Shown one piece after another: positions 54,970 through 64,000 of a stretch of DNA of 64,000 nt. The notes under the pieces were generated by a model. The model was not told the DNA's origin. It searched no databases and was given only the letters and a program-made list of their open reading frames with translations. The position numbers and the translations under genes are program-made. This DNA comes from Escherichia coli (GTDB lineage: Bacteria; Pseudomonadota; Gammaproteobacteria; Enterobacterales; Enterobacteriaceae). Location of the stretch: assembly GCF_051903065.1 (NCBI RefSeq), contig NZ_CP178438.1. One strand, 5' to 3'. Numbering within the stretch: the stretch's first letter is position 1; each line of letters begins with the position of its first letter.

Positions 54970-56217
<1,248 letters not shown>

Positions 56218-56219
56218 CT

Positions 56220-56241
56220 AAAACATAGCCTTTGCTATGTT
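56220..56241. promoter_or_regulatory. MntR operator-like palindrome upstream of mntH
   Basis: aaacatagc-cttt-gctatgttt perfect 9-bp inverted repeat 12 bp upstream of mntH start. Confidence 0.65.
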
Positions 56242-56261
56242 TCATGCTATGCCAAACGAGA

Positions 56262-56280
56262 ATGATTATCAAATTCATTT
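56262..56280. promoter_or_regulatory. Fur box-like sequence in mntH promoter region
   Basis: aatgattatcaaattcatt resembles GATAATGATAATCATTATC consensus. Confidence 0.35.
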
Positions 56281-56543
56281 AAATGGGTTGTGGTGATTTC
56301 TCTGATAGACCAGGATTATGACTACGAAAAGATTGATGACTTGAATGTTATGGTTATGTTTAATGTTAGCACATTTACATAACTTTCAGCTTCCATACAC
56401 AACATAGCAGAAATGTATGACAGCTCACTATTTTTGAAGCTTGTCACAGGACGTCATTATAGTGTGTGTCAGATCTCGTTTTCCTTAACCATGTTACATA
56501 GAATGTGCACGGAAATTTAACCTGCCTCATATTTGGAGCAAAT

Positions 56544-57746
56544 ATGGACCGCGTCCTTCATTTTGTACTGGCACTTGCCGTTGTTGCGATTCTCGCACTG
56601 CTGGTAAGCAGCGACCGCAAAAAAATTCGTATCCGTTATGTTATTCAACTGCTTGTTATCGAAGTGTTACTGGCGTGGTTCTTCCTGAACTCCGACGTTG
56701 GTTTAGGCTTCGTGAAAGGCTTCTCCGAAATGTTCGAAAAACTGCTCGGATTTGCCAACGAAGGGACTAACTTCGTCTTTGGTAGCATGAATGATCAAGG
56801 CCTGGCATTCTTCTTCCTGAAAGTGCTGTGCCCAATCGTCTTTATCTCTGCACTGATCGGTATTCTCCAGCACATTCGCGTGTTGCCGGTGATTATCCGC
56901 GCAATTGGTTTCCTGCTCTCCAAAGTCAACGGCATGGGCAAACTGGAATCCTTTAACGCCGTCAGCTCCCTGATTCTGGGTCAGTCTGAAAACTTTATTG
57001 CCTATAAAGATATCCTCGGCAAAATCTCCCGTAATCGTATGTACACCATGGCAGCAACGGCGATGTCCACCGTGTCGATGTCCATCGTTGGTGCATACAT
57101 GACCATGCTGGAGCCGAAATATGTCGTTGCAGCGCTGGTACTGAATATGTTCAGCACCTTTATCGTGCTGTCGCTGATCAACCCTTACCGTGTTGATGCC
57201 AGTGAAGAAAACATTCAGATGTCCAACCTGCACGAAGGTCAGAGCTTCTTCGAAATGCTGGGTGAATACATTCTGGCAGGTTTCAAAGTTGCCATTATCG
57301 TTGCCGCAATGCTGATTGGCTTTATCGCCCTGATCGCCGCGCTGAACGCACTGTTTGCCACCGTGACTGGCTGGTTTGGCTACAGCATCTCCTTCCAGGG
57401 CATCCTGGGCTACATCTTCTATCCGATTGCATGGGTGATGGGTGTTCCGTCCAGCGAAGCACTGCAAGTGGGCAGTATCATGGCGACCAAACTGGTTTCT
57501 AACGAGTTCGTTGCGATGATGGATCTGCAGAAAATTGCCTCTACACTCTCTCCGCGTGCTGAAGGCATCATCTCTGTGTTCCTGGTTTCCTTCGCTAACT
57601 TCTCTTCAATCGGGATTATCGCAGGTGCAGTTAAAGGCCTGAATGAAGAGCAAGGTAACGTGGTTTCTCGCTTCGGTCTGAAGCTGGTTTACGGCTCTAC
57701 CCTGGTGAGTGTGCTGTCTGCGTCAATCGCAGCACTGGTGCTGTAA
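56544..57746 (+). CDS. nupC: Nucleoside:H+ symporter NupC (CNT family)
   Basis: 400 aa from ATG 56544 ([14 protein letters not shown]...); ORF track begins 13 codons upstream. Confidence 0.95.
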
Positions 57747-57749
57747 GAC

Positions 57750-57790
57750 CATACATAAAAAAGCCGGGGATAATTCCCCGGCTTTTTTAC
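57750..57790. terminator. Bidirectional rho-independent terminator between nupC and yfeA
   Basis: aaaaaa-gccgggga-taat-tccccggc-tttttt. Confidence 0.75.
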
Positions 57791-57795
57791 GCCTG

Positions 57796-59985
57796 TTAAT
57801 CAGCTAATGGCTGCGGGCGACCAATCAAATACCCTTGCAGATATTGCACCCCGAGCTTATGCAATAGCGCCTGTTGCTGTTGCGTCTCGACAAACTCCGC
57901 GACCACACTCAATGACTTCGCTTTCGCCAGATCGGTAATTGATCTCACAATCATCGCATCCAGCGTGTTCGTGACGATATCTTTCACAAAGACGCCATCA
58001 ATTTTGATGATATCAGCCTGCAAACGCTTTAACCGTTCGTAGTTGGCATAGCCGGTGCCAAAGTCATCAATCGCAATCCGGAAACCAAACTTATGCAGCT
58101 GCTCGATGTTGTACATGCTGCTTTCTGCGTTAGAAAACGCCTGCTCCTCGGTGATCTCAAGAATGACCGCCTGCGGGGAGATGTGATAACGCTTAAACAG
58201 ACGAATAATCCGCCCGGCAATATTCTTTTGCAGCAGCGTGAGCGGCATTAAATTGACTGAAAAGCGCGGTCCTTTTTTGTCGCAAGGGTGTGTTGCCAGC
58301 CACTTCAACAAGGATTCCAGCACTTGCAAATCAAAACGCGCGCTAAGGTTAAACTGAGCAATAAGGGGCAGAAACTTATCCGGGGTCATAATGCCGCCGT
58401 CATACTTCAGTCGCGCGAGGATCTCATCATAACCTTCACCCTCTTTGTTGCGAATTGGCTGGGCGTAGAGCAGCAAATCACCCTGATCTAACGCCGTGCG
58501 AATGGTATTCAGCAATAGCACCTGTTTAGTGGTCTGCCCGGAAACCATCTCCTCTCTGCTATCCAGCGCCAGCACATGATGATGTGCACAGGATTGCTCC
58601 GCCAGCCAGCTTAACTGCCCCAACAAGGGTTGCAGGGTTTCCTGATTTCCATCAAAACGCCCCCAGGCAGCACCATAGCCCATATCCAGCCCGGTATTGT
58701 TCCAGTGAATTTGCCGACTATTCAGGATGTTAACCATATGCTGGAGTCGCCCTTCCGTTTCAGGCCCGCTCAGCACTAACAGCAGTTCACTACCCGGCAA
58801 TTGATACAACTTTTCGTTTTCCTGCATCAACGGCAGCAGCGTACGGTAAATTGATCGGATACAGTGAACGCGCATCATTAACCCGTAATGACGACTCATA
58901 AACTCAAGATTATCAATGCGCAGGCAGCAAAAACTCTTGCCCGCCTCTTGCTCCGGCGCTTGTTCCAACGCACGAAAATTGGGTAGGAGCGTTAACGGAT
59001 CGGTCAGCGCCTGCAAATGCCAGCGTCGATTAAGCCATTCACTGCGATGATAAATGCGCACCATATAGAGCAGGCAAACGCTAAAGGAAATCAGCACCGC
59101 GAGAATAAATGCCAGCGAATATTCGGTTTCCACCCCTTGCAAAAAGTTCTGGTTGTAATTCAGCAGGCAAAGCGTTGAAACAGCCCAAGTGAGATTTAAA
59201 AACGGATAGCGAAGCTTACCGACCCCGAGGGTAAAGATGATGAAGAAAACGGGTACCAGGTAACCGGCAATAAAGTCGTTTTCATAAGGTGTGCACAACA
59301 GAAGTAGCAGCACGCTTAACGCTGCCAGCCAGCTTAAGGTAAATGCGCGTTTCTCTTTGCCCAACGACGGAGCGATATCCCTGCGCCACAATATCTGCGC
59401 AAAGTGGGGACTTACAATCATGCGAGTGAGATAGTAGAAAAGCATGTTGTAAATCAGCACCGCGGTGAAAAGGCTTAGTAAATCCACGACCGTGAAAATG
59501 GCATCCGCATCGCCGAAAAAGGTGGATATCTTTAGCGGGAAATCAAAGAAGCTCCCCACAAGATACATGCTGCATTTGATGCCGATCGGCGTCACCAAAC
59601 CAAGCCAGAACAGACGTTGCCAGACATATCGACTGGTCAATCCATAACGCCAACGCGTCCCCAGCTGCCAGCGTAATATTGCGCAGGCACACAACACGAC
59701 AAACGTCTGGCTACCGAGCATGACCGCAGTCTGTAAAAAAGAGAGATGAAAGTTCCACAGATTGGTGCAAAACATCCCGCATAAAACGGGAACGACACCG
59801 CGCCAGCCAAAGATAAACAAGATTGACAGCATTACGCACAGTGGCATCCACGCCAGAAAGATATAACTGGAATGGATAATGGCAAGTGGCGAAATAAAAC
59901 GGGATAGCTGAATAAGTACCACGGTGAGCGTAAACGCTAGTGTGAATATCTTGATATTTTTTATCAGGTTATGCTCCACAAACAT
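57796..59985 (-). CDS. yfeA: c-di-GMP phosphodiesterase with degenerate GGDEF and EAL domains (YfeA / PdeA)
   Basis: 729 aa from ATG 59985 (MFVEHNLIKNIK...); N-terminal membrane domain, C-terminal EAL. Confidence 0.85.
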   Translation of the reverse strand: MFVEHNLIKNIKIFTLAFTLTVVLIQLSRFISPLAIIHSSYIFLAWMPLCVMLSILFIFGWRGVVPVLCGMFCTNLWNFHLSFLQTAVMLGSQTFVVLCACAILRWQLGTRWRYGLTSRYVWQRLFWLGLVTPIGIKCSMYLVGSFFDFPLKISTFFGDADAIFTVVDLLSLFTAVLIYNMLFYYLTRMIVSPHFAQILWRRDIAPSLGKEKRAFTLSWLAALSVLLLLLCTPYENDFIAGYLVPVFFIIFTLGVGKLRYPFLNLTWAVSTLCLLNYNQNFLQGVETEYSLAFILAVLISFSVCLLYMVRIYHRSEWLNRRWHLQALTDPLTLLPNFRALEQAPEQEAGKSFCCLRIDNLEFMSRHYGLMMRVHCIRSIYRTLLPLMQENEKLYQLPGSELLLVLSGPETEGRLQHMVNILNSRQIHWNNTGLDMGYGAAWGRFDGNQETLQPLLGQLSWLAEQSCAHHHVLALDSREEMVSGQTTKQVLLLNTIRTALDQGDLLLYAQPIRNKEGEGYDEILARLKYDGGIMTPDKFLPLIAQFNLSARFDLQVLESLLKWLATHPCDKKGPRFSVNLMPLTLLQKNIAGRIIRLFKRYHISPQAVILEITEEQAFSNAESSMYNIEQLHKFGFRIAIDDFGTGYANYERLKRLQADIIKIDGVFVKDIVTNTLDAMIVRSITDLAKAKSLSVVAEFVETQQQQALLHKLGVQYLQGYLIGRPQPLAD

Positions 59986-60192
59986 GAGTACACTACTCTC
60001 ACTGATCGGGGTTTTCAGGCACACAAATAATAAGTTTATTCGCATTGCGAAGCAAACAGGGGCCATCCTGTTGCCGATTTTTCATCCAATGATGCTTTCA
60101 CCAGGCGGCACTAACCCGGACGTAGACTGTATTACAAAAGCGGCAAAAAGCAGAGACAAAAAACCCCCGCTTTGCAGCGAGGGTTGGAAATT

Positions 60193-60268
<76 letters not shown>

Positions 60269-60307
60269 ACGATGCGTTTACGTACCAAATTTGCTGGGTG
60301 CAAAATT

Positions 60308-60383
<76 letters not shown>

Positions 60384-60618
60384 GTCACGTAAAGCTTGTC
60401 GAGTTGACGGGCGGCATCATATGAATTCCGCCCGAATGTGTCAACGGCAAATTGCAACGTGTAGTTTCAATCGCTGAAAAATCAGGCAAATGAACAATTT
60501 TGGAAAACCGCTCGCATTCAGTAGTTATTCATGTCACGGTTTCCTGTAAAGTGGTGCTATAAAATGAACTACTAATAGTCCCACATACATTCAGGGAATT
60601 GTTATGTTCAAGGAGAGG

Positions 60619-60963
60619 ATGACGCCAGATGAACTTGCCAGACTGACCGGCTATAGCCGCCAGACCATTAATAAATGGGTACGCAAGGAAGGCTGGACGA
60701 CGTCACCAAAACCAGGCGTCCAGGGTGGCAAAGCCCGACTGGTTCACGTCAATGAACAGGTTCGTGAATATATTCGTAATGCTGAACGTCCAGAAGGTCA
60801 GGGAGAAGCGCCTGCCCTTTCTGGTGATGCGCCGCTTGAAGTATTGCTGGTGACACTGGCGAAAGAGATGACGCCAGTTGAACAAAAACAGTTTACATCC
60901 TTGCTTCTGCGGGAAGGGATTATCGGATTGTTACAACGCTTAGGGATTCGCGATAGCAAATAA
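60619..60963 (+). CDS. yfeC: Putative DNA-binding protein YfeC
   Basis: 114 aa from ATG 60619 preceded by aggagagg; paralogous to YfeD. Confidence 0.85.
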   Translation: MTPDELARLTGYSRQTINKWVRKEGWTTSPKPGVQGGKARLVHVNEQVREYIRNAERPEGQGEAPALSGDAPLEVLLVTLAKEMTPVEQKQFTSLLLREGIIGLLQRLGIRDSK

Positions 60964-60964
60964 T

Positions 60965-61357
60965 ATGAAAAGATTACGCAATAAAATGACCACCGAAGAA
61001 CTGGCTGAATGCCTCGGTGTGGCTAAACAAACTGTTAACCGTTGGATCAGAGAAAAAGGCTGGAAAACGGAAAAATTTCCCGGCGTGAAAGGCGGTCGTG
61101 CCAGACTTATTCTGGTCGATACGCAAGTTTGCGAGTTTATTCAGAACACGCCTGCGTTCCATAACACACCAATGTTGATGGAAGCTGAAGAGAGAATTGC
61201 TGAATACGCTCCTGGAGCACGCGCCCCGGCGTATCGACAAATCATCAACGCGATAGATAATATGACAGACATTGAGCAGGAAAAAGTCGCGCAATTTTTG
61301 TCACGTGAAGGAATTCGCAATTTCCTCGCCCGTCTCGATATTGACGAATCAGCATAA
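60965..61357 (+). CDS. yfeD: Putative DNA-binding protein YfeD
   Basis: 130 aa, shares ...TVNRWIREKGWKT...PGVKGGRARL... pattern with YfeC. Confidence 0.85.
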   Translation: MKRLRNKMTTEELAECLGVAKQTVNRWIREKGWKTEKFPGVKGGRARLILVDTQVCEFIQNTPAFHNTPMLMEAEERIAEYAPGARAPAYRQIINAIDNMTDIEQEKVAQFLSREGIRNFLARLDIDESA

Positions 61358-61364
61358 ATAAAAA

Positions 61365-61395
61365 ACGGCAGGATATTATCTCCTGCCGTTTATCT
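61365..61395. terminator. Bidirectional terminator between yfeD and gltX
   Basis: aaaaa-acggcagga-tattatc-tcctgccgt-ttatcttttt. Confidence 0.7.
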
Positions 61396-61408
61396 TTTTA
61401 CACGCTAA

Positions 61409-62824
61409 TTACTGCTGGTTTTCGCGTTCAGCAATAAAGGCCAGCGCTTTGTTGATACGCTCAATGCTACGTGTCTTACCGATTGCGTGAACGGTAACAT
61501 CCAGTGCCGGAGACTGCCCCGCACCGGTTACGGCGACACGCAGCGGCATACCAACTTTACCCATACCCACTTCCAGCTCATCCGCCGTCGCCTGAATAGC
61601 GTGATGAACGTTTTCAGCGGTCCAGTCAGTAATCGCGGCCAGTTTGTCACGAACCACTTCCAGCGGCTGACGCGCTACCGGACGCAGATGTTTTTTCGCG
61701 GCGTCGGCATCGAACTCAGCAAAATCTTCGTAGAAATAACGGCAGCTCTGTGCCATCGCTTTCAGCGTCTTGCAGCGTTCGCCCAGCAGTTTCACCAGAT
61801 CAGCCAGCTGCGGGCCGTTACGGGTATCGATATTTTCCTGCTCAATGTGCCACTGTAAGTGAGTAGCAACATACTCCGGCGGCAGCGCGTTAATGTAGTG
61901 ATGGTTCAGCCACAGCAGCTTGTCGGTGTTGAACGCACTGGCAGATTTGCTGACGGCATTCAAAGTGAAGTATTTGATCATCTCTTCACGAGTGAAGATT
62001 TCCTGATCGCCGTGGGACCAGCCCAGACGCACCAGATAGTTCAGCAGTGCTTCTGGCAAATAACCGTCATCACGATACTGCATTACGCTGACTGCCCCGT
62101 GACGTTTGGACAGTTTTTTGCCGTCATCGCCGTTGATCATAGAAACGTGCGCGTAAACCGGTACCGGCGCTTTCAGGGCTTTAAGAATGTTGATCTGGCG
62201 TGGCGTGTTGTTGATATGGTCTTCGCCACGGATAACGTGGGTGATTTCCATATCCCAGTCATCGACAACCACACAGAAGTTATAGGTTGGGGAACCATCG
62301 GTACGGCGGATAATAAGATCGTCCAGTTCCTGGTTGCTGAACTCGATCGGACCACGGATCTGATCGTCAAAAACAACAGAACCTTCCTGCGGGTTAGCAA
62401 AACGTACGACACACGGCTCATCATCAGCGTGATGCTCATGACTGTGGCGGCAGCGACCATCATAACGCGGCTTCTCACCTTTCGCCATTTGCTCTTCGCG
62501 CAGCGCTTCCAGGCGCTCTTTAGAGCAATAGCATTTATAAGCTGTGCCCTCTTCCAGCATCTGATCGATCACCGCGTTGTAGCGATCAAAACGTTTGGTC
62601 TGGAAGTACGGACCTTCATCCCACTCCAGGCTCAGCCAGTTCATGCCATCCATAATGGCTTCGATAGCTTCCGGCGTGGAACGCTCAAGATCGGTGTCTT
62701 CAATACGCAGCACGAACTCACCGCCGTGATTACGTGCAAAAAGCCAGGAGTAAAGAGCAGTACGCGCGCCGCCAACGTGCAGATAGCCTGTTGGGCTTGG
62801 CGCGAAGCGAGTTTTGATTTTCAT
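61409..62824 (-). CDS. gltX: Glutamyl-tRNA synthetase
   Basis: 471 aa [27 protein letters not shown] (HIGH motif) and KLSKR. Confidence 0.97.
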
Positions 62825-63082
62825 GAAATGGCCTTACGTTTAGAAAGATGCCGACAACCGGCAAATCCTGGAAAAATTGAGTGGGCGATATTCTATCACT
62901 CCCGCCTGATTCCTCAATGTAGTTCGGGTTGCAACCTTACGCATTATTGTTTTCGTTGACAAATTGCGCAACACGGTCTGTTTTGCGATCATCTTGCTTA
63001 AATTTACGACGAACGAACAATTTCTTTAGAAAATGCGTTGACTCATTTTGAACTCTCCCTATAATGCGACTCCACACAGCGG

Positions 63083-63158
63083 GGGTGATTAGCTCAGCTG
63101 GGAGAGCACCTCCCTTACAAGGAGGGGGTCGGCGGTTCGATCCCGTCATCACCCACCA
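63083..63158 (+). tRNA. valU: tRNA-Val (UAC)
   Basis: GGGTGATTAGCTCAGCTGGGAGAGCACCTCCCTTACAAGGAGGGGGTCGGCGGTTCGATCCCGTCATCACCCACCA. Confidence 0.95.
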
Positions 63159-63202
63159 ACTACTTTATGTAGTCTCCGCCGTGTAGCAAGAAATTGAGAA
63201 GT

Positions 63203-63278
63203 GGGTGATTAGCTCAGCTGGGAGAGCACCTCCCTTACAAGGAGGGGGTCGGCGGTTCGATCCCGTCATCACCCACCA
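63203..63278 (+). tRNA. valX: tRNA-Val (UAC)
   Basis: Identical copy. Confidence 0.95.
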
Positions 63279-63324
63279 CTTTCTCACCAGCTAAATTTCT
63301 TGTAACAATGTGAAGTACCGAAGT

Positions 63325-63400
63325 GGGTGATTAGCTCAGCTGGGAGAGCACCTCCCTTACAAGGAGGGGGTCGGCGGTTCGATCCCGTCATCACCCACCA
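63325..63400 (+). tRNA. valY: tRNA-Val (UAC)
   Basis: Identical copy. Confidence 0.95.
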
Positions 63401-63404
63401 CTTC

Positions 63405-63480
63405 GGGTCGTTAGCTCAGTTGGTAGAGCAGTTGACTTTTAATCAATTGGTCGCAGGTTCGAATCCTGCACGACCCACCA
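63405..63480 (+). tRNA. lysV: tRNA-Lys (UUU)
   Basis: GGGTCGTTAGCTCAGTTGGTAGAGCAGTTGACTTTTAATCAATTGGTCGCAGGTTCGAATCCTGCACGACCCACCA. Confidence 0.95.
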
Positions 63481-63487
63481 ATGTAAA

Positions 63488-63512
63488 AAAGCGCCCTAAA
63501 GGCGCTTTTTTG
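63488..63512 (+). terminator. Rho-independent terminator of the valU-lysV tRNA operon
   Basis: gcgcc-ctaaa-ggcgc followed by TTTTTT. Confidence 0.8.
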
Positions 63513-63599
63513 CTATCTGCGATTTGTAAGATTGATTTTTCTTCTCAAGTTCCTTGTTCTTCTACCGATATTACCTCGTACAGTGACGAGGACTGAACA

Positions 63600-63728
63600 A
63601 TGGCCACTATCTCTTCAACTTCAATTCCTTCCATACAAACACAGAGTAGTAACATGGCATCACAAGGTAGCGATGTTGCTTCACAAATCGCGCGGATAAG
63701 TCAGCAAATCATCAAACTCACTCAATAA
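63600..63728 (+). CDS. Small Ser/Gln-rich ORF (42 aa) ending at in-frame TAA; downstream frame continues as Gln-rich coiled-coil without start codon
   Basis: MATISSTSIPSIQTQSSNMASQGSDVASQIARISQQIIKLTQ* then IKEIVDTSGSAEDKQKQAELIQQQITLLETQLAQLQRQQAEKAQEKEQRLS... in same frame. Confidence 0.3.
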   Translation: MATISSTSIPSIQTQSSNMASQGSDVASQIARISQQIIKLTQ

Positions 63729-64000
63729 ATTAAAGAGATTGTAGACACTAGCGGCAGTGCTGAAGACAAACAAAAACAGGCCGAATTGATTCAACAGCAA
63801 ATCACCCTACTGGAAACACAACTGGCGCAGTTGCAGAGACAGCAGGCAGAAAAGGCGCAGGAAAAAGAGCAGCGTTTGTCTCTGAATGTATCCCTTCTAA
63901 ATCCTGTTGAAAAAACGACTCATATCGATATCTATATCTGATACAACGGATCCCCTTCCCGCCCAGCCATTAGCGCATTGCCCTGGTCTCGTACCACGTC

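Follow-up and report, generated by a model that had tools for sequence, protein, structure and literature searches.

How did the convergent genes nupC and pdeA (yfeA) of Escherichia coli come to be separated by only 49 bp in one genome and by a complete IS186 element in K-12 MG1655, and which of the two arrangements came first? We addressed these questions in a stretch of 64,000 nucleotides from contig NZ_CP178438.1 (RefSeq assembly GCF_051903065.1), hereafter the window, whose own coordinates are used throughout. An earlier note, made from the sequence alone, had stated that MG1655 carries an IS186 copy at this locus and had proposed that the window retains an ancestral empty site in a non-K-12 lineage. 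Our preferred reading, to which we assign a probability of about 93%, is that the two genes natively join 3′ to 3′ across the 49-bp spacer, which has an intact shared predicted terminator and an IS186 target that was never occupied, and that other strains received independent insertions.

The spacer (57747-57795, between the two ORF ends) is bounded by two genes. On the + strand, nupC, encoding a nucleoside permease, extends from 56505 to 57746; the ORF as listed begins at GTG, ends with the TAA at 57744-57746 and scores 486.7 bits, above the cut-off, against NCBIfam TIGR00804. MntH is the NCBIfam assignment of the ORF upstream of it. On the − strand, pdeA (57796-60066; stop codon at 57796-57798, 3′ end at 57796) encodes a GGDEF/EAL c-di-GMP phosphodiesterase; its name comes from RefSeq annotation of matching genomes, and its EAL/GGDEF family matches in NCBIfam fall below the equivalog cut-offs. 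The annotated RefSeq products are 400 aa for nupC and 729 aa for pdeA. Strain ECNB21-M121, which is identical over this stretch, is annotated with the same two gene names, likewise 49 bp apart and with an empty site, and the gap length given in the earlier note is thus correct. A search with Rfam over 55000-64000 returned tRNAs only.

Most of the gap is filled by a 32-nt palindrome (57757-57788) that forms a perfect hairpin, made up of an A6 run (57757-57762), the stem arm GCCGGGG (57763-57769), the loop region ATAATT (57770-57775), the stem arm CCCCGGC (57776-57782) and a T6 run (57783-57788). Its RNA folding energies are -25.8 kcal/mol for the + strand (z-score -5.4) and -31.1 kcal/mol for the − strand (z-score -7.5), values that no shuffled sequence out of 200 matched. 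On each strand, the stable GC-rich stem-loop runs directly into a U6 tract; a simple pattern scan for terminators listed the + strand site, and the − strand site was absent from its list. Since a GC-clamped hairpin preceded by an A-run and followed by a T-run may act in both directions, this single palindrome can, on the folding predictions, serve as a Rho-independent terminator for both the nupC and the pdeA transcript. The fold and the two U6 tracts bear out the suggestion that a bidirectional terminator is all that parts the genes. In its layout, one GC-rich hairpin between an A-tract and a T-tract, it resembles the bidirectional Rho-independent terminators of convergent genes, and like them it lies close to both coding sequences, 10 nt from the nupC stop and 7 nt from the pdeA stop; its role as a terminator is predicted from structure.

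In MG1655 (NZ_CP010440.1), a transposase gene, labelled by PGAP as “IS4-like element IS421 family transposase,” sits between nupC and pdeA. The element is a 1339-bp IS186 with 23-bp perfect terminal inverted repeats (CATAAGCGCTAACTTAAGGGTTG), and IS186 is listed at MG1655 coordinates 2512296-2513638 (PMC3045373, Table 6). The earlier note's statement would have failed had MG1655 no IS at this site; the annotation, the junctions and the published table all show that it was correct. A 10-bp direct repeat, GGATAATTCC, flanks the element inside the hairpin (12 bp when the C/G at the ends of the IS is assigned to the target), and junction comparison places the single copy of the window at 57768-57777, the same 10 bp being duplicated around IS186 in MG1655 and other occupied genomes. 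In the alignment of this region that the note had proposed as a check, the window is colinear with MG1655 apart from IS186 and its duplication: once the IS and one copy of GGATAATTCC are removed, 8 SNPs remain in 600 bp. SNPs aside, taking the IS and one repeat copy out of the occupied allele yields the empty allele, which bears no footprint.

A blastn search of IS186 against the whole 64-kb window gave zero matches, at nupC-pdeA or at any other site, as the note had held, and the window contains neither the terminal inverted repeats nor the transposase gene that mark an occupied site. The locus and the target hairpin are those of IS186C (insL3) between nupC and yfeA/pdeA of MG1655, of which the window, SNPs aside, represents the pre-insertion form. 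Whereas the window lacks the element and keeps the terminator intact, both halves in MG1655 lose the hairpin: neither the nupC nor the pdeA 3′ end forms it any longer (z-scores of -0.45 and -0.04), which shows that the insertion destroys the predicted shared terminator. Among the papers searched, none names IS186 together with nupC.

A comparison with 80 kb of MG1655 shows colinearity of the window from 22468 to 57778 (98.1% identity) and from 57767 to 63523 (99.0%), and IS186 with its duplication is the sole break in this stretch. The MG1655 region has nothing equivalent to positions 1-22467 and 63524-64000. In the first of these segments, genes for a sucrose-type MFS permease, a fructokinase, a sucrose hydrolase and a LacI-type regulator adjoin dsdA; RefSeq names the permease cscB and the hydrolase cscA in strains 23CRST031 and 23CRST027, which are 100% identical over window 1-24000. 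The segment thus holds cscB, cscK, cscA and cscR at dsdA in place of dsdC/dsdX, and it also contains a large autotransporter gene and an IS66-family element. At the other end, homology to MG1655 stops at 63523, 43 bp past tRNA-Lys (lysV), and neither the RtT sRNA nor xapR, which follow lysV in MG1655, was found in 63481-64000. The window is from a wild, non-K-12 strain. The earlier note had drawn that conclusion from the csc genes, the lysV flank and the empty site together; the first two are upheld, but the empty site alone is no mark of lineage, because genomes of the K-12 haplotype can be empty and many non-K-12 strains are occupied.

To place the two states in the species, we surveyed 5,426 complete E. 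coli genomes. With a 1049-bp query that had the spacer at its centre, the site proved uninterrupted in about 4,460 of them (about 82%), O157:H7 and O104:H4 strains included. Junction queries that admitted full junction matches only gave 937 occupied genomes (17%), with IS186 at this same position; target duplication was seen in the seven that we inspected. The K-12 orientation accounts for 472 of these, a count inflated by laboratory derivatives of K-12, which form the overwhelming majority beside a few wild strains. The opposite orientation accounts for 465, mostly wild or clinical, among them E. coli C/NCTC122, a strain named ST648 and HUSEC2011 (O104:H4). IS186 is present somewhere in 2,204 genomes and occupies 7,660 chromosomal positions in them; the nupC-pdeA site is occupied in about 43% of the carriers and holds about 12% of the chromosomal copies, both figures being inflated by the over-representation of K-12 derivatives. 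In one such derivative, Stbl4 (NZ_CP081009.1), the IS186 next to nupC is broken by an IS2 that lies about 50 bp in from the left end of IS186.

Of the two states, the empty one is ancestral, as the note had proposed, and that of K-12 is derived. Besides its majority in the survey, which spans divergent lineages, the empty site occurs in the wild in the exact form from which the K-12 allele would have arisen. Using a 1000-bp reconstructed K-12 query and an E-value limit that removed half-matches, we found at least 60 wild genomes, including NCTC86, UMNF18 and FORC_081, whose sequence agrees at 100% over 1000 bp with MG1655 once the IS and one copy of the duplication are taken out of the latter. 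Some of these empty K-12-haplotype genomes, FORC_081 for example, carry IS186 elsewhere. Outside E. coli proper, a hairpin scan of one genome per species showed the cryptic-clade outgroup Escherichia sp. E1V33 to have the same uninterrupted nupC-pdeA hairpin in a short spacer with no IS, the locus being 93% identical to the window. Under the preferred reading, the IS186 transposase would have cut the GGGG-N6-CCCC stem in K-12 and in many further strains, and the hairpin would have been split by the incoming 1339-bp element, with 10 bp of the target duplicated. The strain of the window would never have received IS186 here, keeping the ancestral unoccupied site, and the occupied strains would stem from several independent insertions in either orientation.

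An empty site could also be secondary, if an ancestor had carried IS186 and lost it by precise excision between the 10-bp duplications, with the hairpin restored. Such an event leaves no footprint and is hence compatible with the sequence by itself, and 17% of genomes do carry the element here; we nevertheless judge it extremely unlikely. Precise excision is rare (one of 857 IS events in a mutation-accumulation study, PMC5009759), the empty form is the majority across divergent lineages and is also found in outgroup Escherichia, the identical genome ECNB21-M121 is empty too, and over 2.7 kb the haplotype of the window is at least 34 SNPs away from each of the occupied haplotypes that were sampled. 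Less credible still is an assembly artefact in which the repeat was collapsed or skipped. Misassembly is a classic problem at IS copies, but a collapsed IS would give a contig break or a duplicated target rather than a single perfect hairpin, and the junction is a clean palindrome, identical in thousands of independently assembled complete genomes and in the outgroup. We reject both the artefact and a precise-excision scar.

The position of the insertions has a ready explanation in the target specificity of the element. IS186 targets 5′-GGGG(N6/N7)CCCC-3′, a motif found in K-12 at just 19 loci in its N6 form and 35 in its N7 form, and it enters a target in either orientation, some sites being hit repeatedly (Lee et al. 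2016, PMC5009759); the lon promoter site also acquires spontaneous insertions in opposite orientations (PMC3045373). A pattern search with this motif shows that the centre of the terminator stem, GGGG(ATAATT)CCCC (GGGGATAATTCCCC; 57766-57779), is an exact N6 match, unoccupied in the window. The N6 form has two matches in the window against 0.56 expected, and the one N7 site overlaps the other N6 site at 3623. That second motif (3623-3637, GGGGCCATATCCCC(C)) fits both the N6 and the N7 form and lies inside a large minus-strand ORF (848-4345); it is unoccupied too.

Whether the site was struck more than once can be read from the sequences that flank the element. We compared 2.7-kb flanks in seven occupied genomes of our own choosing, a selection from which the true number of events may differ. 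All seven carry a 1339-bp IS at the same position with a 10-bp duplication, and their flanks fall into four haplotypes. The K-12 type is represented by MG1655 in the forward (K-12) orientation and by E. coli C in reverse, with 0 SNPs within the pair. A loop variant, 12-13 SNPs from the K-12 type, comprises TW10722 (forward) and HUSEC2011 (reverse), which differ by 1 SNP. The ST648 type, 52 SNPs from the K-12 type, was sampled in reverse only, in ST648 itself. The fourth haplotype, 85 SNPs from the K-12 type, has a long spacer with a REP element and includes 100248 (forward) and E600003 (reverse), with 0 SNPs between them. In the loop variant, the SNP is present in both copies of the duplication, each reading GGATCATTCC, so the insertion entered a site that already carried it. 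Four flank haplotypes imply at least four insertions, or seven if each orientation is a separate event, and with insertions in at least four local haplotypes the nupC-pdeA hairpin is a recurrent hot spot for IS186.

The two orientations might instead reflect one or a few insertions followed by inversion of IS186 in place, through recombination of its 23-25-bp inverted ends. Strains of opposite orientation do share near-identical 2.7-kb flanks in three haplotypes (0, 1 and 0 SNPs), and the two orientation classes are nearly equal (472 versus 465). However, four haplotypes would still need at least four separate insertions, no such mechanism is documented for IS186, and experiments show insertion in either orientation at a given target (PMC5009759), including the lon promoter (PMC3045373). 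Empty sites of the K-12 haplotype are moreover common; wild genomes with the exact pre-insertion haplotype offer sites open to repeated insertion, so that independent events in one haplotype are to be expected. We consider in-place inversion very unlikely as the source of the two orientations and retain independent insertions.

A looser idea is that the balanced occupancy exceeds what target preference would give, either because IS186 flips in place or because selection favours loss of the nupC/pdeA terminator. The near-equal counts, the opposite pairs on identical flanks in three haplotypes, the occupation of 43% of carriers and the presence of IS4 in the same stem are what might point that way; we regard it as speculative and improbable. 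The IS4 copy lies in strain 23CRST047 (NZ_AP045820.1, 2985-4450), in the same terminator hairpin at the equivalent of window 57766-57778, with a 13-bp duplication GGGGATAATTCCC, and strain 23CRST049 shows the same. With both IS186 and IS4 at the hairpin, two IS4-family elements are drawn there. The consensus target of IS4 is AAA-N20-TTT, which the hairpin would fit. We found nothing usable in the literature on IS4 target preference to explain IS4 in the hairpin.

Known IS186 hot spots, at the lon promoter, fimA and menC, are described as GGGG(N6/N7)CCCC sites in PMC5009759 and in what PMC3045373 and PMC4618355 cite from SaiSree et al. 2001, and against that description the nupC-pdeA stem is an exact N6 match. 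As at those sites, insertions occur at one fixed position and in both orientations, here in several haplotypes of natural genomes. The established hot spots were defined in K-12 laboratory selections or mutation-accumulation lines, in which the nupC-pdeA site was already occupied, whereas the evidence here is natural polymorphism. Unlike the lon promoter, fimA and menC, moreover, this target is part of the terminator that separates two convergent genes, where an insertion disturbs neither a coding sequence nor a promoter.

The spacer is not equally short everywhere. Some E. coli haplotypes (strain 2020CK-00188, 1995-2140) and E. whittamii (9240-9450) have a longer nupC-pdeA spacer, in which REP-like palindromes (GCCTGATAAGCG...CGCATCAGGC) lie between two copies of the terminator hairpin; in E. 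whittamii, the scan of one genome per species likewise showed the hairpin duplicated around REP elements. The longer form gives the impression that about 20 bp were duplicated to either side of a REP block, and in the REP-bearing haplotype IS186 sits in the nupC-proximal copy of the hairpin. Hairpin matches in six unrelated bacteria proved to be similar terminator-like hairpins, uninformative on the locus. A 289-bp contig (NZ_VLXZ01000152.1) in the assembly of Alkalicoccobacillus porphyridii (Bacillaceae) matches the E. coli nupC-pdeA junction at 99.3% identity; its site is empty, it has the T allele of the K-12 type, and it is almost certainly E. coli contamination.

An unoccupied site at this locus fits the annotated K-12 genome and the published target specificity of IS186, and is in that sense already known and ordinary. 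The population numbers are a modest addition to known IS186 biology and resolve no open question. Their practical value is small, the locus serving as a strain marker that sets apart K-12 derivatives (one orientation), many wild phylogroup-A-like strains (the opposite orientation) and the empty majority. For the biology of the element, natural genomes show what mutation-accumulation experiments predict, namely that GGGG-N6-CCCC sites are struck repeatedly and in both orientations.
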